From a bacterium (lineage in GTDB: Bacteria; Patescibacteriota; Minisyncoccia; Phycocordibacterales; Zambryskibacteraceae), in the NCBI GenBank assembly GCA_023266935.1, contig JAHFOF010000002.1, forward strand, positions 68,623-132,622: DNA of 64,000 nucleotides. Reading direction: 5' to 3'. A model generated the notes under the pieces. It did no database searches, had not been told where the DNA came from, and saw only the letters and a list, made by a program, of their open reading frames with translations. Positions 2,516 to 48,096 of this stretch are shown one piece after another (position 1 is the stretch's first letter; the number at the start of each line of letters is the position of its first letter). The translations under genes were made by a program, and so were the position numbers.

Positions 2516-3676
2516 CTAGTTTACCACATTCGACATTTTCTTCAGCATCTCTCCGGCTTCGTCGGTGTGGATGACAAAAACTTTTACCTTGCCTCCGTTC
2601 GAAATGTCATCTCCATCTACTGCAGAAATATTTTTCTCATTATTTATATTTAAATCGAGCCAACTCAACTCTTTACAAATTTTTTCTCGGATAATAAAAG
2701 ATCTTTCACCGATGGTACCGGAGAAGACAATCGCCTCTACTCCACCGAGCACCGCAGTATACGCCCCGATATATTTTATAATATGATAAACGAAAGCTTC
2801 TACCGCATCTTTCGCTCCTCCATGACCTTCTTTTTCTGCATCCAAGAGAATTCGCATATCATCTGAAAGTCCGCTGATAGCTAACAATCCACTTTGATTA
2901 TAAAAAATTTCTTCTAATTCGTTCGGAGAATGTTTCCTCGTCAGATTAAGCACCGCGCCTACATCGATGTTCCCCACTCTCGAACTCATGATTAAACCTT
3001 CGAGTGGAGAATAACCCATCGAAGTATCTACGCTCTGACCGTCGAGTAATGCGGTGATACTCGCTCCACTCCCGAGGTGACAGACGATCACCTTGCCTCC
3101 GATTACTTCTTTTAATTTTGGATTAGAAGCAATACTCGAGACGGATAATCCGTGGTATCCGAATCTATACAGATCTTCGTTTTCGACCAAAGCTTTCGGG
3201 ATAGCATAATCTCGAGCCACCTTGAGTAAAGTTGAATGAAAGGCACTGTCCGATACAGCTACTATTTGTATATTCGGGAACAAACTTCGAGTTTTTTCCA
3301 TCTCTTGAATCATCGGTCCAATGTGAACCAAATCGTTCTGGGCTATAGCATTTAATCGTTTTAAAAATTCTTCATCTACTGTTCGATCAACAGCAAAAAA
3401 GACTCCAGGAGCAACGATTCTGAACCCGATATTTTGAATGGGTTTGGCCTCGCTTATTAAAGCTTTCTCTCTGGCTTTTTTTATAAAAGTTTCTAGAGCG
3501 TTTTCAAATATGTCTTGTGTCGTGGATAAAGTCGTTTCGTTTGAATAAGAAAGAGCGAAAGAATCTTTATCTCTTTCAAAATGCGCAGTCAACAATAAAT
3601 TATTTCCTGAATACAAAGAATATTTTTTCGAAGCGCTGCCGATGTTTATGACGAGAATTAATTTTTCCATTGCCAT
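2516..3676 (-). CDS. ackA: acetate kinase
   Basis: [17 protein letters not shown]-terminal ATPase motif, [16 protein letters not shown]; adjacent to phosphoketolase. Confidence 0.75.
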
Positions 3677-8126: not shown

Positions 8127-8214
8127 TGGCGGAAGCGGAGAGATTCGAACTCTCGGTGGGTTTCCCCACGCCACGTTTCCAACGTGGTGCACTAGACCAC
8201 TATGCGACGCTTCC
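8127..8214 (-). tRNA. tRNA-Ser (GGA)
   Basis: Reverse complement GGAAGCG...CCACG-TTGGAAA-CGTGG...long variable arm...TTCGAAT...CGCTTCCGCCA. Anticodon GGA; CCA encoded. Confidence 0.85.
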
Positions 8215-8236
8215 CGATATTAATTTTGAAAGCTTT

Positions 8237-8297
8237 CACTAGACCACCCATCGCCTTTGGCGAGGTCCCGCCGTAGGCGGTGATATGCGACGCTTCC
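8237..8297 (-). pseudogene. partial duplicate of the tRNA-Ser 5' end (nt 1-14 and 15-25) interrupted by a 36-nt double-hairpin element
   Basis: cactagaccac (8237-8247) and tatgcgacgcttcc (8284-8297) are identical to tRNA positions 15-25 and 1-14. A 36-nt insert lies between them. Confidence 0.7.
8248..8283 (-). repeat. 36-nt double-hairpin motif, copy C (degenerate, compensatory stem changes)
   Basis: TCACCGCC-tac-GGCGG GACC TCGCC-aaa-GGCGA TGG in tRNA orientation. Hairpin 2 is TCGCC/GGCGA versus CCGCA/TGCGG in the other copies. Confidence 0.6.
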
Positions 8298-8314
8298 AGA
8301 ATACAAATACTATA

Positions 8315-8965
8315 TTATTTGGCGATTTCTGAATACACCACCACTTTATTTCTCCCACTTCTTTTCGCTTTGTATAAACATTTATCCGCACGATCGATGA
8401 TATTTTCAAAGGTTACGCCTTCATCTGTCGAGGCCACTCCTGCAGAAATAGTAACTTTGAATCCATCATCTTCATTAAATGCGAGGCGCTCGATTGCTTT
8501 CCTGATTTCTTCGGCTTTCTTCTTCGCCTGCTTCTCATCTGCTCCGAGGAGAGCGACCACGATTTCTTCCCCACCCCATCTGCATACTACGTCTTCATCT
8601 CGCACGCATTCTTCTATAGTATGAGCGACCACTTTCAACACTTCGTCTCCAGTGAGGTGCCCATGCTTATCATTTATTTTTTTAAAATGATCGATATCGA
8701 AAAAAATAAAACTCATGTTCTTTAATCCAAACCATGCTCGTCTCTGTGAATGTCTTTCACCTTCTATAGAATTAAAGTGATTACGCGCTTCAACATTAAA
8801 AAACGCACGAGTCTTTATATGAGTCAACGAATCATGAATGAGGTCTTGTTGGAGAAGTTTAACCTTGTGCTCCAAATCAACGATGCGTTTCCTCATTTCT
8901 TCTGGAGTCTGAATTTCTTTCATTTTATCTAGATTACCATTTTCCTGAAGACCCGCCACCCCCAC
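8315..8965 (-). CDS. GGDEF-domain diguanylate cyclase
   Basis: GGEEI active-site motif, RADKCLYKAKRSGRN, N-terminal coiled coil. Confidence 0.85.
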   Translation of the reverse strand: MGVAGLQENGNLDKMKEIQTPEEMRKRIVDLEHKVKLLQQDLIHDSLTHIKTRAFFNVEARNHFNSIEGERHSQRRAWFGLKNMSFIFFDIDHFKKINDKHGHLTGDEVLKVVAHTIEECVRDEDVVCRWGGEEIVVALLGADEKQAKKKAEEIRKAIERLAFNEDDGFKVTISAGVASTDEGVTFENIIDRADKCLYKAKRSGRNKVVVYSEIAK

Positions 8966-9794
8966 TCATGCCTCCACCGAACCCTCCGAAACCTCCACCA
9001 AAACCACCACCCCCACCTCTGCCTCCTCCAATCCACCAGGGAGGATTCGTACCGGATAATTTATGTTTCTCGTATTGTTTAGAAACAAGATAATCCAATA
9101 GGAGACCGAAGGGAATAAGCACGATGCCCGCGATTATCCCCACAGTTAAGGAGGAAACAAACACCAAAATAATACTAATGATTCCCCCAAGTACTCCACC
9201 CATCCACCAAGATTTGGATCGACCCAAAATAGAAATCAAATAAATGATGAAAAATGGAATGTAAATCCATAATCTAGAAAACAGCGAAAAGTTCAATGTT
9301 TGAGGAGGAGGAAGTGCACCCCCGTTTAATAAATTTGTGATCTGATCCGCACCGAGTCCTAACCCCAAAGCATAATTCCCTTTCTTAAACTCTGGAGTAA
9401 TAATCTCATTTATGATTCTCGAAGTGGTGATATCTGTGAGCGTCGACTCGAGTCCGTACCCAACTTCCATTCTCATTTCCCTGTCATCTACTGAAACAAG
9501 AATAAGGGCGCCGTTGTTTTTGTCTTTTTTTCCAATTCCCCAATCTGCGAACAATTTGACCGCAAAGTTTTCTATCGTATCTCCATCGAGAGATTTTATA
9601 ATCACTATAGACACTTCGTCTCCTGTAGATTTCTCTAGAGCCGAAAGTTTATTTTCTAGAAACGATTTATCCTGAACAGAAAGTATTTGAGCAAAATCGT
9701 TCACAAACCCTGTTGATTGACCGGGATTCGTATAAGCGAAAGACAGGATAGGAATTAAAAGCAACCCAAAAACTGGCGCTACAAATTTCCGCAT
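8934..9794 (-). CDS. TPM-domain (TLP18.3/Psb32/MOLO-1) protein with TM and Gly-rich tail
   Basis: VNDFAQILS...EKSTGDEVSIVIIKSL...GALILVSVDDREMRMEVGYGLE; C-terminal GGGRGGGGGFGGGFGG tail. Confidence 0.75.
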   Translation of the reverse strand: MRKFVAPVFGLLLIPILSFAYTNPGQSTGFVNDFAQILSVQDKSFLENKLSALEKSTGDEVSIVIIKSLDGDTIENFAVKLFADWGIGKKDKNNGALILVSVDDREMRMEVGYGLESTLTDITTSRIINEIITPEFKKGNYALGLGLGADQITNLLNGGALPPPQTLNFSLFSRLWIYIPFFIIYLISILGRSKSWWMGGVLGGIISIILVFVSSLTVGIIAGIVLIPFGLLLDYLVSKQYEKHKLSGTNPPWWIGGGRGGGGGFGGGFGGFGGGMSGGGGSSGKW

Positions 9795-9800
9795 TTGGGT

Positions 9801-10358
9801 TTATTGGAGATTAACCGTCGGAGCTGTAGCCGAACCAGAAGTGGCTTCAAAGTATGTTCGTTCATGAAAACCAAAGAGTCCAACAAATAGGTTTGTTGGG
9901 AATCTTTTCACCACGAGGTTAAAACTTTTAACCATGTCGTTGTATCTCATGCGTTCTACACTGATTCGGTTTTCTGTTCCTTCGAGCGAAACCATGAGGT
10001 CCTTCACATTGTTTGATGATTGAAGTGCAGGATAATTCTCCATCACAACTAATAATCGTGCGAAAGAAGATTCGACTTGGGTAGCCGCTGCTGCTTTGGT
10101 ATCTGGAGTGGTCGCACCGGCGTATTTAGTACGAGCATCAGCGATATCACCGAAAACTTTTTGCTCTTGAGTCATCATCCCTTTCACTGAATTTACGAGG
10201 CTGGGAATGAGGTCAAAGCGCCTCTGATAATTCGACTCAACTTGCGCCCATTGGGCATCCGCATTTTGGTTTAGAGTGACAAGTTTGTTATACGAAGACC
10301 AAACATACAACACCACGAGTACAGCAACACCTAAAACAATCCATTTTGTTTTACTCAT
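9801..10358 (-). CDS. LemA family protein
   Basis: N-terminal TM; NADAQWAQVESNYQRRFDLIP...ENYP LemA signature; conserved LemA–TPM pairing. Confidence 0.85.
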   Translation of the reverse strand: MSKTKWIVLGVAVLVVLYVWSSYNKLVTLNQNADAQWAQVESNYQRRFDLIPSLVNSVKGMMTQEQKVFGDIADARTKYAGATTPDTKAAAATQVESSFARLLVVMENYPALQSSNNVKDLMVSLEGTENRISVERMRYNDMVKSFNLVVKRFPTNLFVGLFGFHERTYFEATSGSATAPTVNLQ

Positions 10359-10405
10359 ATTTTTAATTATTACTTACCTCGATTATACAGGAATTCGAGA
10401 GAAAA

Positions 10406-12742
10406 CTAGAACTCTTTGAAGGTTGGGTTGAAGTTTAGTTGGATGAGACCTCCTGTTCCTCCACCGTTTGGTGTACCACTACACGAACCAGAATTTGAAT
10501 GACCATCAGTCACATAAGCATCAATAACCTTTTGTCCGATGGTTGAATATTTCATAACGAGAGTACTACCCGTCGGTGCTGGGCCTGTTGGAACATTTGT
10601 CCCAGTCCAAGTGTAGTTGTATGGTCCGCCGTCTCCTCCAGAAGCACTCGCTGTCCAGGTGACATTTTGACCTACGAGAGCTGTGGTCGGAGATGCACTA
10701 CAAGAAACTATGATGCCTGTGTAATTTTGAACGTTCAAAGTAAAGCTGGTCGTTTTACCCAATGGATTTCCGGTAACAGTGATAGTGTATTGACCCGCCA
10801 CTGTAGAAGGATCAACAGTAAGGGTGACAGTCGAGGTACAAGTAGGATTCATCGGTGAACATGTAGAAGCAGAAGTGGAAACTCCCACAGGAGCACCAGA
10901 AACAGTCAGGTTAACAGGTTGAGATGCACCAGAAGTAAGAGTTTCAGTAATACGATTTGTTCCCGATGTTGAGGTTTGTCCTTTCTCTATAGTAGTCGCT
11001 CCAGAATTGGAGAGAGAATAGTTGAAAGACGGATAAACCAGAGTGAAACTTTTCGTCTCTGTTGGAGAAACCACCATGGATGTACTGCCTCCATCAGAAT
11101 TGGTAACTGAAGGATAAGAACCGTTCACTGCACCTGCAGAGATAATGTAAGTTTGTCCATTCTTGGATGGATTGACTGTATAAGATCCATCTGTACCAGA
11201 ACCAGAAATATTTTCTGGACTAATAGTCCAAGAACCTTGAGCGCTATTTGAAGACACGTTGATGATAGCGTGGGATTGAGCCGCCACCACAACCGTCGCA
11301 GCCGAAGCTTGCCCCTGACCATTCGCATTTAAACAAGTCAGAGTGTATGTGTAAGTCTTGGCTGTTGTTAGCACTCCCATTGATTGAGAACCTGAAGCGG
11401 CTTTGGTACCCGACCAATCTCCAGAAGCCGTACAAGATGTTGGATTGTTGGCTACACTCCAATTTATAGTTGGATTGATTGTATCTTTTATTCCACTCGA
11501 AGGATCTGCAGAGATTGTCACCACTGGTGTTGGACCAGAAACCGGCACATCCACAGTGGCAGAGCAATTATATGTTTGGCTATCATCACCGGTACAAGAA
11601 GCAGAATAGTTTGTGGTGCTGTATGGATTTTGAATTTGAGAACCGGATGTGCCCGTCGAACCTCCGAGCCACCAAACTGGACTACACGAAACGATACGAG
11701 AAGAAGAAAGGGCAACGGTAGTATTGCCTCCTGCAGAAACAGTTGTTGGGTTGGCTGTCACAGTACATGATGGACCAGAGGAACCAGCACAGGCAGGAAC
11801 AGGAGCATTTACTGTGACACTCTTTGTATCAGAACTACCTCCCGCCCCAGAACAAGTGATTGAATACAAGGTTGTTCCATTTGGAGTCACACTTTGACTT
11901 CCAGATACTGCTGTAGAATTAGTCCAGGGAGCCGAACATGATGTGGTGTTCTCAGAATTCCAAGTGAGGGTTGTGCCAGTGGAACAAGAATACGGATTGG
12001 CTGAAGCCGAAAGGGTAACAGCTATAGATTTTGGTGAATTAGGTGAACAGGTAATATTAAACGAAGCAGAATCTCCAGGATAAACTATCTGACTTGAAGG
12101 AGAAATAGACACGGTATAACCATTGGCAGTAAATGAAGGAGTATAAGTGGTCCCACTAGAAGATGGATATTCTGTCCATGTTTGAGTTTGTCCTGGGGCC
12201 AAAGGAACTCCATCAGGAGACATCAAACCAGAACCAATCGGGCAGGAATTGTTTACAGCCATAGAAGCCGTGGTTGGAGGAGTGATGACCGGCTGAAGAA
12301 TAGTGACTGGGATAACCCCATAGAGAAAAGCACGGTTTTGATCTGTCCCTTGGTAACTAGTAAACTCTGTTCGAGCATAAAACGTATAATTGCCCGGGGG
12401 CAAGGATATATTGTTTTTAAAGGTTAAACATGCACTGTGACAAAATGGAACTGTTCCACTCCAACCAGAAACTGTTGGCGATGACCCCTTTACCACTACC
12501 ACCCCCTCCCAATCATTGGGGACAGGATCTGTGCCTTCAACATAAAGACTGATTTTTGTCGCAGTAGTGGTCAGTGTGGGTGCTGTTGCAGATGAACCAT
12601 TCATATCTACAACGGTAAAACCTCCTTGCCCATCACTAGCACTAAAATTTGCTGACCAAGCTAAAGCTTTCGATGGAGAAAATGAAAATCCAACTCCAGA
12701 CAACACCAAGGTGACAATAAATAAAGATAAGTATTTTTTCAT
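10406..12742 (-). CDS. large secreted Ser/Thr-rich cell-surface protein (putative adhesin, Ig-like repeats)
   Basis: Signal peptide, 778 aa, extreme S/T/G/N composition, repeated ...GS.S.T.T..C motifs. Confidence 0.6.
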   Translation of the reverse strand: MKKYLSLFIVTLVLSGVGFSFSPSKALAWSANFSASDGQGGFTVVDMNGSSATAPTLTTTATKISLYVEGTDPVPNDWEGVVVVKGSSPTVSGWSGTVPFCHSACLTFKNNISLPPGNYTFYARTEFTSYQGTDQNRAFLYGVIPVTILQPVITPPTTASMAVNNSCPIGSGLMSPDGVPLAPGQTQTWTEYPSSSGTTYTPSFTANGYTVSISPSSQIVYPGDSASFNITCSPNSPKSIAVTLSASANPYSCSTGTTLTWNSENTTSCSAPWTNSTAVSGSQSVTPNGTTLYSITCSGAGGSSDTKSVTVNAPVPACAGSSGPSCTVTANPTTVSAGGNTTVALSSSRIVSCSPVWWLGGSTGTSGSQIQNPYSTTNYSASCTGDDSQTYNCSATVDVPVSGPTPVVTISADPSSGIKDTINPTINWSVANNPTSCTASGDWSGTKAASGSQSMGVLTTAKTYTYTLTCLNANGQGQASAATVVVAAQSHAIINVSSNSAQGSWTISPENISGSGTDGSYTVNPSKNGQTYIISAGAVNGSYPSVTNSDGGSTSMVVSPTETKSFTLVYPSFNYSLSNSGATTIEKGQTSTSGTNRITETLTSGASQPVNLTVSGAPVGVSTSASTCSPMNPTCTSTVTLTVDPSTVAGQYTITVTGNPLGKTTSFTLNVQNYTGIIVSCSASPTTALVGQNVTWTASASGGDGGPYNYTWTGTNVPTGPAPTGSTLVMKYSTIGQKVIDAYVTDGHSNSGSCSGTPNGGGTGGLIQLNFNPTFKEF

Positions 12743-12743
12743 T

Positions 12744-13331
12744 TTATTTGCGGGTTACATAAACTAATTGGATTTTGGTACCGCCCGATTCTGGATTGAT
12801 AATGATGTTCAGTTCTTCTCGATCCTTAATTGCTTGATATCTGATTAATGATGCAGATTTGGATTGACTCACAATCGTAAATCCGTTGGTTGATAAATAT
12901 TTACTGTATGCAGAATAAAGTTCTTCTGTTTGTTTTGAAGACATGTACTGCACAGAATACAAGGTTGCTCCTCTGTCTGGATAAGCGAGAACTTCTGATT
13001 TAGAAATATTTTTCGTTTCCACAGGAATGTCTGTTGGGAATCCAGCTGGAAGTTGTTTGACTCCATCGGTGATTTGGACCTTTTCAGTAGTGAAAGATTT
13101 GTTCGGACGATTTGTGTAGTAGAAATATCCAGCCAACAACCCCAAGATGATCGCCAAAACAATAATGGAAATTAAATACGAATGAGGAGTAGGAACATCA
13201 GATGCCTTCTGAGGAGGTGGTGTTGAAATTGGAGCTTGAGGAGGTGGAGTATAAACAGGGGTGGAAGCCACCGCATTTTGCGGGGTCCCGCCAGAGGCGG
13301 TGATTGGGTTTTGGTTTAAATTTGGAGGCAT
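12744..13331 (-). CDS. hypothetical membrane protein (Pro-rich N-terminus, one TM)
   Basis: 195 aa. The N-terminal codons overlap copy B of the 36-nt motif, so the true start is uncertain. Confidence 0.4.
   Translation of the reverse strand: MPPNLNQNPITASGGTPQNAVASTPVYTPPPQAPISTPPPQKASDVPTPHSYLISIIVLAIILGLLAGYFYYTNRPNKSFTTEKVQITDGVKQLPAGFPTDIPVETKNISKSEVLAYPDRGATLYSVQYMSSKQTEELYSAYSKYLSTNGFTIVSQSKSASLIRYQAIKDREELNIIINPESGGTKIQLVYVTRK
13268..13303 (-). repeat. 36-nt double-hairpin motif, copy B
   Basis: Reverse complement tcaccgcctctggcgggaccccgcaaaatgcggtgg is near-identical to copy A. It lies at the 5' end of gene 12744..13331. Confidence 0.7.
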
Positions 13332-13423
13332 ATAAAATGTTTATGACAAATAATCTATGCGTATAAGTGTAGCATTAAAATACCTAGGTCATATATAGAG
13401 TTATTAACACATAAAGATGGGGA

Positions 13424-13453
13424 TTGTTTAAAACTTGACTTTTTACCCATAAC
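13424..13453 (+). promoter_or_regulatory. sigma70-like promoter for the metzincin gene
   Basis: TTGACT, 18-nt spacer, TATAAT about 30 nt upstream of the start. Confidence 0.5.
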
Positions 13454-13484
13454 TATGGTATAATATTGACAGGTCGGCATAGAT

Positions 13485-14924
13485 GTGCCGAATATGTTCC
13501 TCGTCAACTTCAATTCTGGAGGTCGCATGCGTACCAATCTTTCCCGCCTTGGGCAGGTGGTCGCTCTTGTGACCTCCGTGCTCTTCACTTCGGGCTGTAA
13601 CAAAAAGCCCACCGAACCAATTGTAGTGCCACCTCCCCCGACACCCGAAACGGTGTCTGTGAGTGCGGTGGCTCCTGCGTCTGTAAACCAGACACCGAGC
13701 ACCTTCCCCTTCGCGCCTATCACCATCGTGGTGACGGCATCGAGCACCAAGAAGGATGCCACTGTGACAGTCACTTGCACGGTGGATGGACAGAATGCTC
13801 CGTGTTCGACGAATATCCCTGTTGGCACCCATTCGTGGTGTGGCATCGGGACTTCATCGACCGGCATGACCGCGAGTAATTGCGGATCGTCCGTCGTCAA
13901 CCTGATGCTCGACACGAAGAAAGTAGTCGGCTTCGATGCGAACGGGAACGAATATGTTCCTGCCGGATCGTGGGTCATCTACGGAGAAGGAAATGGCAAG
14001 GATTCGACACAAGTCGGGGTTGATGGCTCATACAGCATCAACACTCGATACGTCGGCATGGGCAATGTCCCCGTGGAATTCCGCGGAGACAATGTCATTC
14101 GACCGTCGTTCGGTCGAACGAGTGCAGAGTTCTTCGCTTCCCCAAGCATTATCATGGGTTCGAAGGTCTCGAACACTCCGGTGTGTGCCACGACTGGTCC
14201 GTCGAAAGCGATTTCGATAGATTTGGAAAAGGCATACACTCCGGCTCCAGGTTCGACTCCAGACAACATCCCCTTCTACTATCGCAAGGTAGTGAATGGA
14301 AGTTGGGCTTACGCTGTGGGTGGATACAAAAGCTGGCCAGTGAAAGAAGCTCTCGACCACACCACGAGTTCGAGCCCAATCACAGCGAGTGATTCGACGA
14401 AGAGTTTCACCAACTTGGATTCTCTGACCAAAGCTTTCTGCACGCAGGTTTTCATTCCTGCAAACGAGAGCGATGTACGAGCCAACGGTGGAGTGCTCCT
14501 CGGAGTACACGCAGATGCTGGATACAGTGGAAATACACCCCAACTTTATCAAGGAGATTATCTTTCTGGTCAAGTTGGTTTCGGGAGCAATAACGGCTTC
14601 AATTTCTTTGTTTTTGCTCCACACGAAAGCATTCACGCTCTTGGATTCGGACACACGTGTAGTTGGGTGAGCATCATGCGCTCCAGCTGTCCGTTTGCCA
14701 CCGAAGACAAGATCATGCCCGAGGACGTCGCATACATCCTCTACATGAAACGGGTACGCGAGCTTGAACGCAAGTACAACACTCGCCTCTCGCTGTCGTG
14801 GATGCATCAGGGCGAACGTCGAGCGAAGTTGCTCACCGAAGAGTCAGTCGTGTTTGTCGGCGCCGATGGTTCGTTCGAGACTGCATCAGTCCCCGGCGGA
14901 GCATACGTCGTCCTCAAACCGTAG
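13485..14924 (+). CDS. metzincin-type zinc metalloprotease lipoprotein
   Basis: Lipobox LFTSGC; HESIHALGFGH (HExxHxxGxxH) followed by a Met-turn SIM. Confidence 0.65.
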   Translation: MPNMFLVNFNSGGRMRTNLSRLGQVVALVTSVLFTSGCNKKPTEPIVVPPPPTPETVSVSAVAPASVNQTPSTFPFAPITIVVTASSTKKDATVTVTCTVDGQNAPCSTNIPVGTHSWCGIGTSSTGMTASNCGSSVVNLMLDTKKVVGFDANGNEYVPAGSWVIYGEGNGKDSTQVGVDGSYSINTRYVGMGNVPVEFRGDNVIRPSFGRTSAEFFASPSIIMGSKVSNTPVCATTGPSKAISIDLEKAYTPAPGSTPDNIPFYYRKVVNGSWAYAVGGYKSWPVKEALDHTTSSSPITASDSTKSFTNLDSLTKAFCTQVFIPANESDVRANGGVLLGVHADAGYSGNTPQLYQGDYLSGQVGFGSNNGFNFFVFAPHESIHALGFGHTCSWVSIMRSSCPFATEDKIMPEDVAYILYMKRVRELERKYNTRLSLSWMHQGERRAKLLTEESVVFVGADGSFETASVPGGAYVVLKP

Positions 14925-14969
14925 GCCAAGGGTCCTGAGAGAAGTCGAAGGAATTGAAGTTATAAGTTT

Positions 14970-15003
14970 GCCCCGTTCCGCTAGCGGAACGGGGCTTTTT
15001 CTT
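14970..15003. terminator. bidirectional rho-independent terminator between convergent genes
   Basis: GCCCCGTTCCGC-ta-GCGGAACGGGGC followed by TTTTT, with an A-rich stretch 5'. Confidence 0.7.
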
Positions 15004-15006
15004 TGT

Positions 15007-15765
15007 TTATAAATTATTATTGTTGATTAATTTCTTTAACTCCAGTTCCAAAGCAGAAAGATGTCCACTACCATAAACAATGAAAACACTTTTCTGTGAT
15101 TCCCAAGCTTTTTTTATTTCCAACAATATAAATTCGTTCCTGATTTTTGTTCGACTAGAGACTATGTTGTTTATTAGTGTGTCACCTCTTCGTGGATCTG
15201 ATATTAAATCGAGGAATTGTTTATCTTCTAGAGATTGTTCACCAAATATTTTTTTATGCTGATTCAAAAACCAAGATCCATCAACTACAAACTTATAAAT
15301 GTCCGAAAACTTTGATTCTCTTTCTGTCGATTTATTAATAGCTTCTTCGAACGTAGATTGTCTAATATGACGAAACCATCCGGCAAGGCTCTGAACAATC
15401 ATAGTATAAGCGACATCATTTGTATCGTATAAGCCACAGAGCAATTCACGTTGTTTCCTATCGTCTGGTTCTGGACGTAGCATCTCTATGTCTGACTGTC
15501 TTGCCAACCATTGTATTCCTCCTCCTTCGCCGTATTGATTAATTGATTCTTCATAAGTTGAGAGAGTTTTTTGTATTCGACCCTCAACAAAAACAATCCT
15601 CTCACCTTTAGAATCATTCAAAAACTCTGTCCAGAGTTTTTGAATTTGTTCAAACTGAGGGTGTTTTGGGTTGTTGGTGTGACTAACACCAAAAAAATAC
15701 AAAACTTGATTGTTTGATGTTGGCCCGAGTTTGAAAGTTAAAATTTCTTTGTGTTCACCTTCCAT
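15007..15765 (-). CDS. TraB/GumN-like family protein
   Basis: N-terminal LYFFGVSHTNN and C-terminal VFIVYGSGHLSALELELKKL resemble TraB/GumN conserved blocks. Confidence 0.45.
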   Translation of the reverse strand: MEGEHKEILTFKLGPTSNNQVLYFFGVSHTNNPKHPQFEQIQKLWTEFLNDSKGERIVFVEGRIQKTLSTYEESINQYGEGGGIQWLARQSDIEMLRPEPDDRKQRELLCGLYDTNDVAYTMIVQSLAGWFRHIRQSTFEEAINKSTERESKFSDIYKFVVDGSWFLNQHKKIFGEQSLEDKQFLDLISDPRRGDTLINNIVSSRTKIRNEFILLEIKKAWESQKSVFIVYGSGHLSALELELKKLINNNNL

Positions 15766-15837
15766 TGATTAGTGGTAATTATATAAAAAAACCGGAACTA
15801 AGCTAATTTTTGATTGTGAGCTTTTTGTTAATTTAAC

Positions 15838-15866
15838 TTGACAAAAAGATTTAATGGGTGTATAAT
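15838..15866 (+). promoter_or_regulatory. sigma70 consensus promoter
   Basis: TTGACA, 17 nt, TATAAT upstream of 15883. Confidence 0.6.
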
Positions 15867-15882
15867 GCGAACAGACTGAAAC

Positions 15883-16275
15883 ATGAACCTATGCCCGGGA
15901 GGGCGTATGAAAACCTTGGTGCGGATGCTGTTCGCCTGCTTCATCGTGGTATTCGCCACAGCCTGTAAGAAGAGCGAGATGGTCTCCATCTACAACGGAT
16001 GCATCGGTTCGTGGATGCGCATCACCGATGGACAAAATCGAATCGTCACGGAGAAGCTCACATTCGGCGCTCGGATTTCGGTCGAGTATCCTCGACCGCC
16101 CGAAGGTAGTTACAACCAAAGAGTGCTGAACGCCGACGGATTTCGACTCGACAACAACGAGCCCCTCGGTGCGACAAGCTACACCTTCTCCCTCTACGGT
16201 GATGCGAACATCACCGGTCCAAGGGAAAACGCTTGGAACATCACCAGCCTTCCCCGTGGGTGTCCGACGAAGTAG
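15883..16275 (+). CDS. hypothetical lipoprotein
   Basis: Signal peptide with lipobox FATAC; GC-richer than its neighbours. Confidence 0.45.
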   Translation: MNLCPGGRMKTLVRMLFACFIVVFATACKKSEMVSIYNGCIGSWMRITDGQNRIVTEKLTFGARISVEYPRPPEGSYNQRVLNADGFRLDNNEPLGATSYTFSLYGDANITGPRENAWNITSLPRGCPTK

Positions 16276-16293
16276 TCGGCGCCAAAGAAAAAC

Positions 16294-16330
16294 AAACGCG
16301 TTACCATCCAGTAGCGCGTTTTTCTTTTTT
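16294..16330 (+). terminator. rho-independent terminator
   Basis: AACGCGTTAC...GTAGCGCGTT hairpin followed by TTTTTCTTTTTTT. Confidence 0.55.
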
Positions 16331-16337
16331 TAGTATA

Positions 16338-16583
16338 ATGGAGAACTGTAAAGCAATGGTTCAAATCCTTCCGTATATCCAAATCATCCTCTCCCTCCTC
16401 CTCATCGGAGGGGTACTTCTCCAACAATCTGAAGCCGGACTCGGTTCAGCTTTTGGAAGTGGTTCAGAGAGTTCGATGCACCATACTCGCCGAGGTTTCG
16501 AGAAGTTTCTTTTTTATTTCACCATCCTCGTCTCGATTCTCTTCGCCGTGACTGCTTTCATGAATCTACTTTTCTCTCGATAG
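16338..16583 (+). CDS. secG: preprotein translocase subunit SecG
   Basis: Two TM helices with a Gly-rich loop GLGSAFGSGS. TATAAT just upstream. Start moved to the internal Met of the 116-aa frame. Confidence 0.65.
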   Translation: MENCKAMVQILPYIQIILSLLLIGGVLLQQSEAGLGSAFGSGSESSMHHTRRGFEKFLFYFTILVSILFAVTAFMNLLFSR

Positions 16584-16596
16584 AATTCACTACTAA

Positions 16597-18336
16597 ATGA
16601 AATATTCAGAACTACGCTCCCTCTTGGTGAAGCGTTTCAACATTCCCAAAGAACGACCAGTCAGGAATGCGATTCGACATTTTACTATTGCCGAGAATGC
16701 CGTCTTTTGGTTTTTTGTTTTTATTTTTGTCTTATCTGGAGTAGCTCTTTTGTGGCAAGTGAACAATGCGTTTCTCGTTTCTGTTCCTCTTCGTGGAGGT
16801 AGTCTGACCGAAGGAGTGGTCGGTACCCCTCGTTTCATCAATCCCGTACTCGCCTTCTCTGATGCGGATAAAAACCTTACTGCCCTCGTTTATTCTGGTC
16901 TCGTTCATAACACTTCAGAAAACCAAACAGAAAACGACCTCGCAGATGATGTTTCTTTGTCTCCAAACGGTTTAACTTATACCGTTCATATTAGATCGAA
17001 CGCGAAGTTTCAAGACCAAACTCTGGTTACCGCAGACGATGTCTTGTTCACCATTCAAAAGATTCAAAACACTAATCTAAAAAGTCCCCTATTCGGAAAT
17101 TGGAGCGGTGTGGCGGTGAACAAAATAGATGATCATACTGTCTCTTTCACTCTAAAGAAACCTTATACTCCATTTATGAATAACCTGACGATCGGAATAC
17201 TACCAAAGCATATTTGGAAAAATGTTTCAGATGAAGAATTTTCTTTTAGTCAGTTCAATGTTCTGCCCGTCGGTTCTGGCCACTACAAAATAAATACTGT
17301 TCAAAGAAACTCTGGTGGTATTCCCGACTATTATGACCTTGTTTCTGCAGACAGTGCATATATAGAACATTTTATCTTTAGATTTTATTCGAATAAACAA
17401 GATTTGTTAGATGCTTATTCTAATGGTGAAGTCGGAAGCATGGGAGGCATCTCTCCAGAAGAAGCCATCGCTTTAAAGAAAAATGGATCGAACATTGTCT
17501 CTGTTCCTCTCACCAGAGTGTTTGGAGTTTTCTTTAACCCCAACCATTCTAAAACACTGCTCGACAAAACGACTCGACAAGCTCTCGACCTTGCCACTCC
17601 ACGAGAACAAATAGTAAAAGATGTTCTCCATGGATACGGGACTCCGATTACTGGGCCACTTCCTCCTGGATTATTTAGTTGGACGAATCCAACGAACATT
17701 TCTTCTTATGAAGACAGGGTGAATCAGGCCAAAACTATTTTGAAAAAAGCTGGATGGACTACAAATACTCAGAGCGGGATGCTTGAAAAAAAGACAAAGG
17801 GTGCTACACTAACTTTGTCGTTTACTATCTCTACCGGTGACACCCCAGAACTCAAAGCCGTGGGCAAAGTATTAGTGGATGCCTACAAGCAAATCGGGGT
17901 TAAAGTAGATTTGCTCGTATTTGAAACGGGTGATCTAAACCAAAATGTCATCAGGCCGAGATCCTTCGACGCACTACTTTTCGGAGAAGTAATAGGTCGA
18001 GATGCAGATGTTTATCCGTTCTGGCACTCTTCAGAAAGGAATGCTCCAGGATTAAACATCGCTCTATATGCGAACAGTAAAGTAGACAAACTGCTCGACA
18101 CAGCGAGAACCACCTCGAACGATTCAACTAGAGAACAAAGCTATAAATCATTTGTTTCAGAAATTAAAAATGATGTCCCAGCAGTGTTCCTATATTCTCC
18201 GAGCTTCTTGTATGTCGTTCCCAAATATGTCAACAATATTTCTCTCGGCGAACTGTCAGCTCCTCAAGACAGATTCCTCGGAGTGAAAGATTGGTATATA
18301 GAGACAAATAAAGTTTGGAAACTATTTGTAAAATAA
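16597..18336 (+). CDS. solute-binding protein family 5 (peptide/nickel-type ABC substrate-binding protein), membrane anchored
   Basis: 579 aa, N-terminal TM, SBP_bac_5 fold (VFLYSPSFLYVVPKYV, etc.). No cognate permeases adjacent. Confidence 0.7.
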   Translation: MKYSELRSLLVKRFNIPKERPVRNAIRHFTIAENAVFWFFVFIFVLSGVALLWQVNNAFLVSVPLRGGSLTEGVVGTPRFINPVLAFSDADKNLTALVYSGLVHNTSENQTENDLADDVSLSPNGLTYTVHIRSNAKFQDQTLVTADDVLFTIQKIQNTNLKSPLFGNWSGVAVNKIDDHTVSFTLKKPYTPFMNNLTIGILPKHIWKNVSDEEFSFSQFNVLPVGSGHYKINTVQRNSGGIPDYYDLVSADSAYIEHFIFRFYSNKQDLLDAYSNGEVGSMGGISPEEAIALKKNGSNIVSVPLTRVFGVFFNPNHSKTLLDKTTRQALDLATPREQIVKDVLHGYGTPITGPLPPGLFSWTNPTNISSYEDRVNQAKTILKKAGWTTNTQSGMLEKKTKGATLTLSFTISTGDTPELKAVGKVLVDAYKQIGVKVDLLVFETGDLNQNVIRPRSFDALLFGEVIGRDADVYPFWHSSERNAPGLNIALYANSKVDKLLDTARTTSNDSTREQSYKSFVSEIKNDVPAVFLYSPSFLYVVPKYVNNISLGELSAPQDRFLGVKDWYIETNKVWKLFVK

Positions 18337-18358
18337 AAAAATAATAAAATGAATCCAA

Positions 18359-18394
18359 TCACCGCCTCTGGCGGGACCCCACAAAATGCGGTGG
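18359..18394 (+). repeat. 36-nt double-hairpin motif, copy A (5' leader of rnj)
   Basis: tcaccgcctctggcgggaccccacaaaatgcggtgg. Inverted orientation relative to copy B, about 5 kb away. Confidence 0.7.
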
Positions 18395-18492
18395 CTCCTG
18401 CTCCTACACGCACACATGCTCCGCGTTCTCCACTCATGTCTCGTTCTCTAAAACAAAGAGGGATGAGAAGGGACAATGATCGCCCGATTCCG

Positions 18493-20202
18493 ATGAAAAA
18501 ACCGCACGACATCATTCCCCCACTGGCTCCAGGTAATATTCGCATTGTGCCCTTAGGAGGAGTCGAGGAAGTTGGACGAAACATGACTGCGATTGAATAT
18601 GGAGGAGACATCATCGTTGTCGATTGTGGGATTCAATTCACCGATGCAGAAACTCCAGGAGTAGATTATATCCTCGCAAATACAAAATACCTTGAAGATC
18701 GAGTAAACATGATTCGAGCACTCGTTATCACTCACGGTCACCTCGACCACATAGGTGCGATTCCTTACCTCATCACTCGCCTCGGCAATCCTCCTATATA
18801 TACACGCGAGTTTGGAGCTTTGATGATTAAAAAAAGGCAAGAAGAATTCCCACATCTTCCTCCATTGAATTTTCGAATTGTAGAAACCGCAGACAAGGCG
18901 TCGATTCCCATTACTCCGAATCTGAAAGTGAGGTTCTTTGGTTTGACCCACTCGATCCCTGATTCAACTGGCATTATTATCGAGACTCCATTCGGAGATA
19001 TCGTGAACACCGGGGATGTGCGTGTAGAAAACGAAGATGGCGTGCCTGTAGAAAAAGAAGTTGAACAATACAAAATGTTTAAAGACAGAAATGTTTTACT
19101 CTTCACCATGGATTCGACTGGTATAGAGAAGCCGGGTTTCTCTCCGTCCGAAGCTCATATCCTTAAAAACATAGACAAAATTGTAGCCGAAGCTCCTGGA
19201 CGAGTAGTCATCGCCACCTTCGCCTCTCAAGTCGAACGCATTATCGAATTCATCAACACAGCCAGGAGATATGGCAAGAAAGTGGTGATAGAAGGTCGAA
19301 GTATGCGAAACAACGTAGACATCATCAAACATCTTAACCTCGTGGATACAAGTGGAGTGATCGGGATCGAAGACATCACCAAATTCCCCGAAAACAAAAT
19401 ATTGATGATAGCCACTGGTGCCCAAGGTGAAGAATTCGCTGCTTTGATGCGAATGTCAAACAACACTCACAAATTTATTAAACTCAACCGCACAGATACT
19501 ATCATCCTTTCCTCATCTGTCATCCCCGGCAATGAACGAGCGATAGCCAAACTAAAAGACAACCTCTTTAGACACGATTCACGTATTATCACTTATCTAG
19601 ATTCTGATGTGCATACAAGTGGACACGGCAAACGTGGAGAACTCGAATGGGTTCATAAACAAATTCCTTATAAATTTTTCATGCCTGTGCACGGACATCA
19701 CTACATGTTAAAGCAACACGCAGAACTCGCTCGCTCTCTCGGCACACCGGCAGAAAACATCATCGTGCCAGACAACGGTTCGATTATTGAAATTCGAGAT
19801 GGAGGTAAAACCTTTATTAAACTCTCAGAAAAAGCTCCAAGCGGAGATGTGGTTGTAGAAGGATTCAATGTTGGAGATGTATCCGAAGTATTGATTCGTG
19901 ATAGGAAAATGCTCGCTGAGGATGGGATGTTCGTCATCATCGCGATGGTCAACACTCAAACAGGCCGATTAAAGAAATCTCCAGACATCATTAGTCGAGG
20001 ATTTATTTATCTCCGAGAATCTCAAGAACTGTTGAACGAAGCTCGACACATCATCAAACGTTCGATTGAATCTACAACTGTAGGTATGAACCCAATCAAT
20101 TTTGATTATGCGAAGAATGCTGTAAACGAAGATATCTCTCGTTGGCTCTTCCAAAAGACTGCCAAGAAACCAATAGTTATCCCCGTCATCTTGAGTGTTT
20201 AA
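18493..20202 (+). CDS. rnj: ribonuclease J
   Basis: Metallo-beta-lactamase HGHLDHIG and beta-CASP domains. Start placed at MKKPHD by alignment to RNase J N-termini (IRIVPLGG...). The ORF track begins at 18349, inside the repeat. Confidence 0.85.
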   Translation: MKKPHDIIPPLAPGNIRIVPLGGVEEVGRNMTAIEYGGDIIVVDCGIQFTDAETPGVDYILANTKYLEDRVNMIRALVITHGHLDHIGAIPYLITRLGNPPIYTREFGALMIKKRQEEFPHLPPLNFRIVETADKASIPITPNLKVRFFGLTHSIPDSTGIIIETPFGDIVNTGDVRVENEDGVPVEKEVEQYKMFKDRNVLLFTMDSTGIEKPGFSPSEAHILKNIDKIVAEAPGRVVIATFASQVERIIEFINTARRYGKKVVIEGRSMRNNVDIIKHLNLVDTSGVIGIEDITKFPENKILMIATGAQGEEFAALMRMSNNTHKFIKLNRTDTIILSSSVIPGNERAIAKLKDNLFRHDSRIITYLDSDVHTSGHGKRGELEWVHKQIPYKFFMPVHGHHYMLKQHAELARSLGTPAENIIVPDNGSIIEIRDGGKTFIKLSEKAPSGDVVVEGFNVGDVSEVLIRDRKMLAEDGMFVIIAMVNTQTGRLKKSPDIISRGFIYLRESQELLNEARHIIKRSIESTTVGMNPINFDYAKNAVNEDISRWLFQKTAKKPIVIPVILSV

Positions 20203-37340: not shown

Positions 37341-38243
37341 TTATAGCTCTTTTTCAGCCTCTATAAATTCATCCAAATCACCATTTAGGACTTTTTCTAT
37401 TTGAGAAGTTTCAACGTTGGTTCGGTGGTCTTTGACCATTTTGTATGGATGCAGAACGTACGAACGGATTTGGTTTCCCCATTCAATCTGCGTTGTTTTA
37501 GAAATATACATCCCCTTTTCTTTCGCCTTCCTCTCTTCGTCTCGAAGTTTATAAAGTTTGGCCGAAAGCATCATGAGAGCTTTCTCTTTATTCTGCGCTT
37601 GACTGCGTTCTGTCTCTACATGCACGGCGAGGTTCGTGGGGATGTGGACCACACGCACGGCTGTCTCTCGTTTGTTCACATTTTGTCCACCCGGACCAGA
37701 TGATTTAGAAGTCTCAACTCGAATTTCTTCTGGAGGAATCTTTAGTTCATCTGGTGTTTCAAATTCGGGTATCACTTCAACCATAGAGAAAGATGTGTGT
37801 CGCAAATCCTTGGCACTAAATGGAGAGATACGCACGAGTCGATGCACGCCGGATTCATTCTTCAATGTCCCGTATGGACCTTTTGCCTCCTGCCTGCCGG
37901 CAGGCAGGTCAATCTCAATCGTGATGTTTCTGTATCCACCATGGTCATTCGTATTTTTGTGCAGAGTTTTAAAACTCCAACCTTTCTTCTCTATATATTT
38001 CATATACATTTCTAAAAGTATCCTAGAGAAATCTTCAGCGTCATCTCCACCAGCTCCAGAAAATATAGTCATCACTGCACTGCCCTTGTCATACTTTCCT
38101 CCTCCTTCCTTTTCATCTTTTAAATTTTGAATTTCTCGAATAATCGCTTGGGCCTTATCTTTGTCCAACCAAAAATCCGCCGAGCTCATCTCCGCTTCTA
38201 GTTCCTGAATTTTCTTATCTATTTCATTATTTGAAATTGTCAT
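37341..38243 (-). CDS. prfB: peptide chain release factor 2 (short N-terminal domain, no frameshift site)
   Basis: SPF tripeptide motif, GGQ motif (SGPGGQNVNK), HRLVRISPF. 300 aa. Contains palindrome copy 2, encoding DLPAGRQEA. Confidence 0.8.
   Translation of the reverse strand: MTISNNEIDKKIQELEAEMSSADFWLDKDKAQAIIREIQNLKDEKEGGGKYDKGSAVMTIFSGAGGDDAEDFSRILLEMYMKYIEKKGWSFKTLHKNTNDHGGYRNITIEIDLPAGRQEAKGPYGTLKNESGVHRLVRISPFSAKDLRHTSFSMVEVIPEFETPDELKIPPEEIRVETSKSSGPGGQNVNKRETAVRVVHIPTNLAVHVETERSQAQNKEKALMMLSAKLYKLRDEERKAKEKGMYISKTTQIEWGNQIRSYVLHPYKMVKDHRTNVETSQIEKVLNGDLDEFIEAEKEL
37889..37908. repeat. 20-bp GC palindrome, copy 2 (perfect)
   Basis: cctgcctgccggcaggcagg inside prfB. Confidence 0.85.
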
Positions 38244-39690: not shown

Positions 39691-39695
39691 TCAAT

Positions 39696-39935
39696 ATGCA
39701 CATTGTATACGTTTTACAAGACGAAAAGGGTAAGTTTTACAAAGGACTTACAAATAACCTTGCAAGACGTTTCAGTGAACATAAAAGAGGAGAAACAATT
39801 ACAACTTCAAAAATGAGTGGGTTGAAAATTGTTTATACTGAAGAATATGACTCCTTCGAAAAAGCCCGAGCAAGAGAAGTGTACCTAAAAACTGCTGCGG
39901 GACGAAGGTTTCTGAAAAATAAATTGCGGCTGTAG
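39696..39935 (+). CDS. small GIY-YIG nuclease-domain protein (UPF0213/YhbQ-like)
   Basis: IVYVLQDEKGKFYKGLTNNLARRFSEHKRG GIY-YIG motif; 79 aa. The stop codon lies inside the first 10 nt of tRNA-Asp. Confidence 0.75.
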   Translation: MHIVYVLQDEKGKFYKGLTNNLARRFSEHKRGETITTSKMSGLKIVYTEEYDSFEKARAREVYLKTAAGRRFLKNKLRL

Positions 39936-40000
39936 CTCAACGGTAGAGCACTCCCCTGTCACGGGAGAGGCCGTGGGGTCAGCACCCATCAGCCGCGCCA
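39926..40000 (+). tRNA. tRNA-Asp (GUC)
   Basis: GCGGCTGTAGCTCAACGGTAGAGC...CTCCC-CTGTCAC-GGGAG...CAGCCGCGCCA with encoded CCA; unusual T-loop GTCAGCA. Confidence 0.75.
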
Positions 40001-40244: not shown

Positions 40245-40814
40245 ATGGAAAAAGTACCAGGACAATATGAAACCGAAGGTTTTATACCATTTGAACAATC
40301 CCTTCAAATGGCTCGAAAACTCATGGAAGATCATGAAGACGAATTGATAAATATCCGCGCTGCACTTCCCGAAGAAGATCGAGAGGCAATTAGATTTAAT
40401 GGAAGTTCCATTGAACACCACTTGAATAAGTTTCCTAAAGAAACACTAAAAAGATTTTGGGGACATGGAATTTTCAGAGGCGACGCAGAAAAAAATCTTG
40501 CGGCGCTGATTAATGTTATCCAAAATAAAAGTATAAAAGGTTCTATTGCCACCCTTGTTGATAGTGGTTATTATGATGCCGCAAAGGATGGCGATTTTTT
40601 AGTTCTTTCACACGCAGACACCACGCTCGCTGTGTTGAATGAAAACGGCAAACCTATCTTTAATGAAATCGGTTTAGTTATTAACGCTGGAGCCTATGTG
40701 GTAAATGCGAAGCTTTATCCAATAATTGATGATTTGAAGGTTCTTTTTCCTGATGCAAATATTCTCATGGCAAATGAAGTTCCTGAGTATGTGAATAGTG
40801 AAACTGGAGTTTAG
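40245..40814 (+). CDS. hypothetical protein (cassette 1 cargo)
   Basis: 189 aa, soluble, no family recognised. Confidence 0.45.
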   Translation: MEKVPGQYETEGFIPFEQSLQMARKLMEDHEDELINIRAALPEEDREAIRFNGSSIEHHLNKFPKETLKRFWGHGIFRGDAEKNLAALINVIQNKSIKGSIATLVDSGYYDAAKDGDFLVLSHADTTLAVLNENGKPIFNEIGLVINAGAYVVNAKLYPIIDDLKVLFPDANILMANEVPEYVNSETGV

Positions 40815-47511: not shown

Positions 47512-48096
47512 CTAGTTGTCTATTAATCTTTGGGAGGCCATGGATTCCAAGGTAAAACTCGTTCGGGTATTAGATTTGGTTCCAGCATCTCCACTAATCT
47601 TGATCAAAGCCTTCGGTTGTAGTGTGTCAGCTGGATAAGAATTCGCCCCGATAACATAAAATGTGAGGCTACTGATATTTATTTCTGGTGCAGTGACTGC
47701 CACATAAGTATTTCCTCCGTCCACTGATTTTTCCATAGATGAACCGTTTAATCTATATACAGTTTGCACTCCTTCACTCGACAGGAAACTAATGAAAGAA
47801 TCTCCAAGTGAACAATTTTGAGGAAGAGACAAAGAACCAGTAGAACCACAATGGTAGTTTCTACCAAAACGAATTTCTCTGGTCATCGTTTCCACAGCAA
47901 AGTTTAGATTATCCATCACAGTCTTCGCTGATTCGGCTTTTTTATTCGCATCAAAGATTCCCAGAAGCGCGCCCATACTAATCATCATCACCACCATAAA
48001 AACCGTGAGGGAAGTCATCATTTCAATAAGAGTAAATCCCTGCCTGCCGGCAGGCAGGCTTTTTTCATTCTTTGGTTTTAAAAATTTTATTTTCAT
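47512..48096 (-). CDS. type IV minor pilin/pseudopilin; carries palindrome copy 3 in the leader
   Basis: QGFTLIEMMTSLTVFMVV; LPAGRQ immediately before the cleavage Gly. Confidence 0.7.
   Translation of the reverse strand: MKIKFLKPKNEKSLPAGRQGFTLIEMMTSLTVFMVVMMISMGALLGIFDANKKAESAKTVMDNLNFAVETMTREIRFGRNYHCGSTGSLSLPQNCSLGDSFISFLSSEGVQTVYRLNGSSMEKSVDGGNTYVAVTAPEINISSLTFYVIGANSYPADTLQPKALIKISGDAGTKSNTRTSFTLESMASQRLIDN
48039..48058. repeat. 20-bp GC palindrome, copy 3 (perfect)
   Basis: cctgcctgccggcaggcagg in the prepilin leader-coding region. Confidence 0.85.

Follow-up and report, generated by a model that had tools for sequence, protein, structure and literature searches.

The 64-kb window analysed here (64,000 nucleotides, positions 68,623 to 132,622 of contig JAHFOF010000002.1 in assembly GCA_023266935.1, from a member of the Zambryskibacteraceae in the Patescibacteriota) carries three copies, designated A, B and C, of a 36-bp double-hairpin motif that is referred to as el36. 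Comparison with public sequences indicates that el36 is probably a selfish, non-autonomous insertion element of Patescibacteria, linked to tRNA-targeting cassettes that encode a GIY-YIG nuclease. The regular home of el36 is such a tRNA-linked GIY-YIG cassette and, as judged by sequence comparison, copy C is the remnant of a decayed one. Copies A and B, which match at 35/36 positions, are young insertions and sisters of each other; they lie in the disordered N-terminal tails of two proteins, RNase J and a membrane protein, for whose genes they probably have no function.

All three copies lie exactly where a first-pass annotation of the window had placed them. The full 36-mer, searched with up to three mismatches, matched A and B (expectation in the shuffled window, 0.00), and the core of hairpin 1, CACCGCC-NNN-GGCGGGAC, matched all three copies (expectation 0.02). 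A covariance-model search, which the annotation had recommended, was run on the window with filters off and recovered A, B and C, with no further el36 copy in the 64 kb. The GC content of el36 is 67-69%, as compared with about 42% for the window. The identity of A and B was given correctly in the annotation, but the similarity is in fact longer, extending over 54 nt at 89%, because both targets were alike (AAYCCAA|CTYC); each of the two insertions splits an ACT codon. Hairpin 2 of copy A had been read as CCGCA, whereas it reads CCACA, a synonymous CCG>CCA change having broken the hairpin by an A.C mismatch. A 15-mer comprising the 3' end of copy A and its flank, TGCGGTGGCTCCTGC, recurs exactly at 13664-13678 in ORF (open reading frame) 13485..14924, where it encodes SAVAPAS (about 0.04 occurrences expected by chance). 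It was considered as a decayed fourth copy and set aside, as the covariance model gave no support.

Over 100 copies of el36 were found in public sequences, and the named sources are nearly all Patescibacteria, ultra-small bacteria among which the element is widespread. A genome scan that used the core of hairpin 1 as its only pattern was dominated by chance matches in high-GC genomes, and 8 of 120 loci were genuine, each a full-length double hairpin. Two contigs of a single metagenome-assembled genome (MAG) account for the Saccharibacteria matches among these eight, and two contigs of another MAG for those in Kerfeldbacteria; the rest derive from Paceibacterota, Nomurabacteria, a MAG that is unclassified and a contig of 1.5 kb assigned to Endomicrobiia by binning, the last being the only match in a named genome from outside the Candidate Phyla Radiation (CPR). 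A metagenome scan yielded at least 120 loci, about 110 of them genuine and many from groundwater (Hainich, Rifle), and about 15 extra copies beyond the seeds were present in 690 kb of metagenome loci. The viral contigs scanned for el36 gave no match.

As the pattern of the metagenome scan left four base pairs unspecified, pairing could be tested. The consensus is TCACCGCC-NNN-GGCGGGACC-CCGCN-NNN-NGCGGTGG, with 7-nt inverted termini CACCGCC/GGCGGTG. In the 82 distinct sequences among the matches listed, the stems are essentially invariant, also at pattern-free positions, and the loops are unconstrained. Pair 25-29, which closes loop 2, covaries (CG 32, UA 30, AU 16, UG 2, other 2), and pair 21-33 is CG in 75 sequences, UA in 4 and UG in 3. 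The compensatory changes that the annotation had noticed in copy C are thus genuine at the level of the family, and its view of el36 as a covarying double hairpin that acts at the nucleotide level was borne out. The U-A pair at 21-33 (T-A in copy C) marks a subfamily with the form TCGCC...GGCGATGG, which is represented at loci L136, L188, L201 and L228 and occurs with tRNA-Ser(GGA) cassettes. Departures from pairing are more often T.G (8) than A.C or C.A (3). With DNA folding parameters, the double hairpin forms on both strands. A nested single-hairpin fold, which is the RNA minimum-free-energy structure of copy B, was rejected, as it shows no covariation and 48 of the 82 sequences are mismatched at its pair 8-29. 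A search of the whole window against Rfam at gathering thresholds matched only tRNA, and a search of the copy C region up to E = 10 gave chance-level matches only, none of them on the motif.

The element inserts as an exact 36-bp unit, and no target duplication was found in three comparisons of an empty with a filled site (RNase J, gene B and a tRNA-Ser fragment). The first of these concerns copy A. The annotation had placed A and B 5' of genes and had regarded the annotated starts as artefacts; both copies are, however, inside coding sequence, 10 nt (A) and 28 nt (B) after conserved start codons. The N-terminal extension of RNase J, MNPT...RSPLMTRSLRQKGMRRD...KKPHDIIPPL, is kept by nearly all of the 119 closest proteins (79-93% identical), and the peptide ITASGGTPQNAV is found in 0/119 of these orthologues. 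Copy A encodes (I)TASGGTPQNAV(A), and deletion of positions 18359-18394 converts MNP-ITASGGTPQNAVA-PAPTRTH into MNP-T-PAPTRTH, as in orthologues P0007 and P0008; the empty site is also seen in the DNA of loci L241-L243. Since the orthologues share the N-terminal start without the insert, the annotated starts are genuine and the interpretation of copy A as part of an rnj leader fails.

The situation of copy B is analogous. Gene B (the membrane-protein gene) has 451 relatives, and those that cover the N-terminus start with MPPN... or MNPN...; a region rich in Pro, Asn and Gln comes next, then a transmembrane helix and, at the C-terminus, a conserved domain. The peptide TASGGTP was present in none of the 10 homologues inspected, and deletion of the 36 nt leaves MPPNLNQNP-T-STPVY. 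As compared with locus L241, in which only a 127-aa ORF lies between LemA and the SBP_bac_5/RNase J genes, the window holds about 6 kb of extra sequence at ~10400-15800, which comprises gene B, ORF 13485..14924 and a gene for a surface-type protein of 778 aa. Hence, copy B is located in a variable region.

Coding regions are a common target. Of 100 unique copies among the matches listed, 41, including A and B, are in clear long ORFs, and the protein hosts besides RNase J include ribosomal protein S9, SecA, TypA/BipA and type IV coupling proteins. Those S9 and BipA proteins are each 12 residues longer than the respective Pfam profile, and the copies are often near protein termini. The frame is never shifted, because 36 nt correspond to 12 codons. 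As many as 32 of the 41 are read in sense phase 1 (ITAxGGTPxxAVA), four in antisense phase 1 (TTAxGGVPxxAV) and five in other frames, a phase bias which suggests that the copies would be translated and that those retained would have passed selection on the peptide. The common orientation relative to the gene, reported in the annotation for three copies, extends to the family (35 sense and 6 antisense among the ORF copies). The peptide does not account for the sense bias of 8:1, which points to a strand-specific mechanism or an RNA-level constraint; the excess of T.G departures leans weakly in the same direction.

These data bear on two other explanations. One, raised in the annotation, is that el36 is a cis-regulatory or processing RNA element of 5' leaders, involved for instance in RNase J autoregulation. 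Covariation of the hairpins, the sense-strand bias, the T.G wobble intermediates and, in the GIY-YIG cassettes described below, a location where a 5' UTR is expected would all suit an RNA of this kind, but A and B are within conserved coding sequence, the motif is carried by none of the 119 RNase J orthologues, and hairpin 2 of copy A has been broken by a synonymous change. Moreover, ORF copies are found anywhere in proteins, often near the C-terminus, Rfam has no match, and the stems are conserved in sequence beyond what mere pairing would demand. This explanation is therefore considered highly improbable, and the motif is not to be treated as an RNase J regulatory element in this window. The other is that el36 is a conserved peptide module, ITAxGGTPxxAVA, and that the nucleotide identity is coding similarity only. 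The strong frame bias of the ORF copies is what such a module would produce; third codon positions in the stems are nevertheless invariant while the codon-sized loops vary freely, the base pairs covary, antisense copies occur, and RNase J and gene B orthologues lack the peptide. Many copies are also non-coding, being located in tRNA fragments, terminator loops and intergenic repeats, and the subtypes in tRNA fragments carry an in-frame TAA. The chance that the peptide alone accounts for el36 is accordingly minute, and for this window both explanations are effectively refuted. The annotation had set coding similarity against an RNA or DNA element, which is a false choice, as el36, a DNA element, is at the same time read as a peptide; its alternative suggestion of a mobile mini-element was the right one.

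The insertion sites are loop-like or tolerant ones and, in addition to coding regions, include D-loop sequence of tRNA genes, the loops of terminators and other hairpins (L142, L153 and L171) and other el36 copies, as in the nested arrangements at L155 and L129. The flanks share a weak signal: 60% of copies have A at -1, the base preferred at +1 is C or G, and G hardly occurs at -3. Three further classes of element were considered and dropped: a CRISPR repeat, as there are no arrays and the copies are solitary and 5 kb apart; an intrinsic terminator, as there are no T-runs; and an attC-like site or one related to diversity-generating retroelements, as neither integron nor retroelement genes caught attention at the copies, although no systematic screen for them was made.

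Two other repeats were observed. A ~100-nt intergenic composite repeat, tcccgccac...gggcggga followed by el36 and cgcaatcaaggcggtga, is present on several contigs (L137 at 2800-3800, L143 at ~11530-11760), and in L137 two inverted copies of it flank the iscU/nifU genes of the isc operon. A second palindromic insertion family, CCTGCCTGCCGGCAGGCAGG, occurs in the window at 37889-37908, within release factor 2 (37341..38243, minus strand), where it is read in frame as LPAGRQ, and at 48039-48058, a short way ahead of the prepilin motif GFTLIEMM in a pilin-like gene (47512..48096, minus strand). This palindrome is also found in L190, where it is in a tRNA fragment beside el36, in SecA of L121 and in L137.

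Copy C connects the element with its cassette. Its placement before tRNA-Ser was correctly noted in the annotation, but the copy is in fact located in a stretch of 25 nt that duplicates the 5' end of this tRNA. Read on the minus strand, the order is GGAAGCGTCGCATA-[36 nt]-GTGGTCTAGTG, a 22-nt spacer and the intact tRNA-Ser(GGA). When the 36 nt are removed, the fragment agrees with the intact tRNA at 25/25 positions, and there is no target-site duplication. The subtype to which copy C belongs occupies the identical position in the fragment in the GIY-YIG/tRNA-Ser(GGA) cassettes of L136, L188, L201 and L228. The spacer aligns with the 3' ends of the GIY-YIG ORFs of L189, L136 and L201; these ORFs continue into the tRNA, where they end in ...GGVA and a stop codon. 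In L256 the ORF is intact and the gene order is as in the window, namely a GGDEF gene, the fragment with its hairpin, the GIY-YIG gene and tRNA-Ser(GGA). Given this alignment and this synteny, copy C is a leftover of a cassette that lost its nuclease ORF by deletion.

The layout of a tRNA fragment with a hairpin recurs in the metagenome matches for tRNA-Ser (GGA, CGA and GCT), tRNA-Val and tRNA-Asp. Downstream of the fragment there is either a short spacer and a tRNA or an ORF of 62-87 aa and an intact tRNA; the latter follows the ORF wherever the contig reaches that far, and the ORFs abut or overlap the tRNAs. The ORF encodes a GIY-YIG nuclease (Pfam PF01541, E = 4e-17), and 12 such ORFs adjoin el36 among the matches listed. 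The complete cassette thus consists of the promoter side of the tRNA, a tRNA 5' fragment split by a hairpin, a stand-alone GIY-YIG ORF of ~80 aa and the intact tRNA. The GIY-YIG proteins (79-85 aa) comprise the catalytic domain only, with no separate DNA-binding domain, and the nearest solved structures are the stand-alone UPF0213 proteins 1ZG2 and 1YWL.

To guard against ascertainment bias, homologues of the nuclease of this first clade (clade 1) were picked by protein alone and their loci were then fetched (L244/245/246, L247, L248, L249/250, L255 and L256), L204 having been found independently. At all seven independently sampled loci (7/7), a hairpin element is located in a tRNA 5' fragment, no more than ~60 nt upstream of the start codon. 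The fragment nearly always matches the tRNA downstream and is interrupted or ended by the hairpin. The hairpin is el36 itself, a variant of 35 nt, a reversed form whose loops have 4 nt, or one hairpin alone, and its position in the tRNA fragments varies (6|7, 9|10, 14|15, 21|22 and 33-35). The covariance model, applied to 138 kb of sequence from these loci and from close relatives of the window, found no other el36 copy.

A second, complete cassette is present in the window at a tRNA-Asp gene (Table 1). A regular expression for the GIY-YIG motif had found no match in the window, and the divergent gene of this cassette was then located by tblastn. Upstream of its ORF the sequence is GCGGCTGTA-[39-nt palindrome]-GCTCAACGGTAG. 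The homologues of this second clade (clade 2), L251-L254, have the same tRNA-Asp layout, with the palindrome at nt 9|10 or 21|22, and the palindrome family CCCGCCCG(A/T)AC... is found in the tRNA-Asp fragment in 5/5 cases, counting the window. Hence, each nuclease clade has its own palindrome family.

Table 1. Coordinates in the window of the el36 copies and of the features of the two GIY-YIG cassettes.
Feature	Position	Strand	Remarks
el36 copy A	18359-18394	+	codon 4 of RNase J ORF 18349..20202
el36 copy B	13268-13303	-	codon 10 of membrane-protein gene 12744..13331 (minus strand)
el36 copy C	8248-8283	-	between nt 14 and 15 (D-loop) of duplicated tRNA-Ser 5' fragment
Duplicate of tRNA-Ser(GGA) nt 1-14 (GGAAGCGTCGCATA)	8284..8297	-	directly 5' of copy C; compared with intact tRNA
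Duplicate of tRNA-Ser(GGA) nt 15-25 (GTGGTCTAGTG)	8237..8247	-	directly 3' of copy C
GIY-YIG ORF 3'-end remnant (AAAGCTTTCAAAATTAATATCG, ...EAFKKLI...)	8215..8236	-	aligns with ORF 3' ends of L189, L136, L201
Intact tRNA-Ser(GGA), starts GGAAGCGTCGCATAGTGGTCTAGTG	8127-8214	-	anchor of former cassette
Clade-2 GIY-YIG cassette	39630-40000		complete, tRNA-Asp
Clade-2 tRNA-Asp 5' fragment	39630-39638 and 39678-39689		split by palindrome
Clade-2 39-nt palindrome	39639-39677		CCCGCCCGAAC...GGGCGGG
Clade-2 GIY-YIG ORF	39696..39935		stop TAG = tRNA nt 8-10
Intact tRNA-Asp	39926-40000		abuts clade-2 GIY-YIG gene

In several cassettes the reading frame continues into the tRNA. The GIY-YIG ORFs of L131, L189, L201, L228, L244, L255 and L256 end there as ...GGVA-TAG, and that of the window as KLRL-TAG (39924-39935). 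With the stop inside the tRNA, RNase P cleavage of a co-transcript would remove the stop codon, which may constitute a built-in limit on expression of the nuclease. Some loci have multiple parts: two tandem units of a tRNA fragment and el36 precede a single tRNA-Val in L141 (475-586), two palindromes share one tRNA-Asp fragment in L252 (~500-590), and a second GIY-YIG gene lies just 3' of tRNA-Asp in L253 (1038-1292). These arrangements are signs of repeated cassette activity. Next to the clade-2 cassette of the window, a single ORF (40245..40814) is bounded by the two units of a 142-nt direct repeat (40029-40170 and 40871-41012, 98% identical), which includes copies of the 3' end of tRNA-Asp; the arrangement resembles a small element that has integrated at this 3' end.

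In the mechanism that we consider to lie behind these observations, a protein acting in trans would recognise the invariant stems and linkers of el36 by their sequence, on one strand. This would most probably be the cassette's own nuclease, a UPF0213 or structure-specific type of enzyme, together with host repair. A, B and other solitary copies would have arisen as by-products through mobilisation in trans, in a manner analogous to the repetitive extragenic palindromes (REPs) and their REP-associated tyrosine transposases (RAYTs).

Several points weigh against a selfish element of this kind. Neither enzyme activity nor a transposition event was observed, and a GIY-YIG hydrolase of 79 aa cannot perform strand transfer itself. 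Though A and B look recent, the 64 kb contain no intact clade-1 GIY-YIG gene, and the signal shared by target sites, mainly at -1 and +1, is weak. The sense bias and the excess of T.G departures would also fit an RNA-level role or mechanism. The hairpin of the cassette could serve the cassette itself, by disruption of the target site or as 5' UTR structure, and not transposition. Finally, the cassette contexts within a clade partly reflect vertical inheritance, as synteny is kept (tRNA-Met/GIY/tRNA-Asp and GGDEF/GIY/tRNA-Ser).

The question of which enzyme is involved leads to a different explanation, in which an unlinked enzyme mobilises el36, for instance an HUH transposase of the IS200/IS605 type or similar to RAYT that acts on top-strand hairpins, and the tRNA fragments are neutral 'safe havens' with a favoured target in the D-loop. 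The lack of target duplication, the two subterminal hairpins and the strand asymmetry would be expected of such an enzyme. Insertions into hairpin loops and D-loops likewise suggest single-stranded DNA targets, and several unrelated palindrome families coexist in these genomes. A neutral haven is, however, difficult to reconcile with a hairpin in 7/7 clade-1 and 5/5 clade-2 cassettes and with hairpin families that are specific to the clade; there is also no other copy in the 10-kb flanks of four clade-1 loci, and no transposase was noticed beside any copy, although the loci were not screened for one. We regard an unlinked transposase as unlikely.

It is also conceivable that the hairpin is functional for the cassette only, either conferring self-immunity through a disrupted target or structuring the 5' UTR in such a way that the nuclease mRNA is stabilised or limited, and that solitary copies are rare by-products of repair or recombination. 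The hairpin is always in the fragment, whereas its position and its form (reversed and single-hairpin variants included) change from locus to locus, as would be the case if any strong hairpin at this place would do, and the stop codon of the ORF is often within the tRNA. On the other hand, ~40% of the unique copies are in ORFs and some are nested, which is too many, and with a length of always 36 nt too exact, for sporadic repair, and the sequence of the stems is conserved across CPR classes. A role confined to the cassette thus appears quite unlikely, and a selfish, non-autonomous el36 linked to the GIY-YIG cassettes is preferred.

A more far-reaching proposal, which joins several claims and which we put forward tentatively and with considerable doubt, is that the small stand-alone GIY-YIG nucleases of Patescibacteria and their clade-specific, GC-rich palindromes constitute a previously unrecognised class of mobile system, a GIY-YIG counterpart of REP/RAYT. 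In such a system the cassette would home into tRNA genes and rebuild the tRNA from its own 5' copy, the cognate hairpin would be the recognition and cleavage substrate of the nuclease, and solitary 36-nt units would be mobilised in trans, thereby writing 12-residue peptides into essential proteins.

If the interpretation of el36 is correct, it would explain recurrent oddities in the annotation of CPR genomes, namely a 12-residue segment shared without change by proteins that are otherwise unrelated, pseudo-tRNA fragments, and contigs that break off at small GIY-YIG genes. It would also tie hairpin repeats to a nuclease family that had not been linked to repeat mobility, and would open a testable route to what GIY-YIG proteins of the UPF0213 type do, which are widespread and uncharacterised. 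With copies reaching ribosomal protein S9, SecA, BipA and RNase J, the element would bear on the tolerance of selfish DNA in streamlined genomes that have almost no intergenic space.

Among known systems, REPs and bacterial interspersed mosaic elements (BIMEs) are many-copy imperfect palindromes of ~35 nt; the gene for the cognate enzyme is flanked by its own repeats, and clades of repeats and enzymes are paired. REPs are extragenic and have a GTAG-type head, and RAYT is an HUH tyrosine transposase. Like them, el36 is a short imperfect palindrome present in many copies, in this case a double hairpin of 36 nt. Unlike REPs, it enters ORFs (41/100 among the matches listed), has the head TCAC and is linked to a gene for a GIY-YIG hydrolase, the only gene found consistently beside el36 repeats, no screen of the loci for HUH transposases having been run. 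Elements of the IS200/IS605 type and the hairpin-bearing MITEs (miniature transposable elements with inverted repeats) derived from them, known as palindrome-associated transposable elements (PATEs), make no target duplication, have hairpins at both ends and are strand-specific. They insert 3' of a defined target of 4-5 nt and are much longer. The absence of target duplication, the hairpins and the strand asymmetry are shared by el36, but its target signal is weak and no TnpA was noticed nearby in loci that were not screened for one. A classical MITE differs in turn, as el36 has 7-nt inverted termini but lacks a target-site duplication.

GC-rich hairpin repeats are also known from mitochondria, where GC clusters, double-hairpin elements and repetitive hairpin elements occur in compact, AT-richer genomes, are suspected to be mobile by a mechanism that is unknown, and are found in intergenic regions, rRNA and occasionally protein genes (PMC2800124, PMC4478555). 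These are organellar and unrelated in sequence, and no cassette of a tRNA fragment and a nuclease has been described for them. With respect to the cassette, the closest parallels are homing endonuclease genes whose insertion duplicates a portion of the target gene, and SegB of phage T4, a free-standing GIY-YIG homing endonuclease gene in a tRNA cluster, for which nuclease-driven duplication or amplification of adjacent tRNA sequence has been reported (PMC13096335, PMC2988022). The CPR cassettes similarly encode a GIY-YIG catalytic domain beside the target tRNA gene, although at copy C only a 3' remnant of the ORF is left. Seg proteins, however, have DNA-binding domains and long recognition sites, whereas the CPR proteins are bare catalytic domains of ~80 aa, are chromosomal and always come with a GC-rich palindrome. 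The rRNA genes of CPR bacteria contain insertions, mostly at the tops or bases of stem-loops, some non-intron examples of which encode GIY-YIG proteins and many of which are short and uncharacterised (PMC11270868). The habit of tolerated insertions in structural RNA genes is shared by el36; that work concerns rRNA genes only, and the 36-nt element, the tRNA-fragment cassettes and in-frame protein insertions were not reported there.

Full-text literature searches found no description of the el36 sequence, of the tRNA-fragment/GIY-YIG cassette or of their pairing, and none of the known systems compared here combines a 36-bp double hairpin, in-frame spread and such a cassette. The nearest precedent for the in-frame spread is provided by the Rickettsia palindromic elements (RPEs), selfish palindromic repeats of about 100-150 bp, described from Rickettsia, that lie in frame in unrelated and even essential protein genes and are translated as extra peptides (PMC10969869). 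Like RPEs, el36 is inserted in frame into protein genes and would be read through as peptide. Unlike them, it is a fixed unit of 12 codons and is almost confined to Patescibacteria, and a link to a nuclease gene or to tRNA fragments is not known for RPEs. At 36 bp, el36 would be shorter than any in-frame mobile element that was found described, RPEs being the closest.

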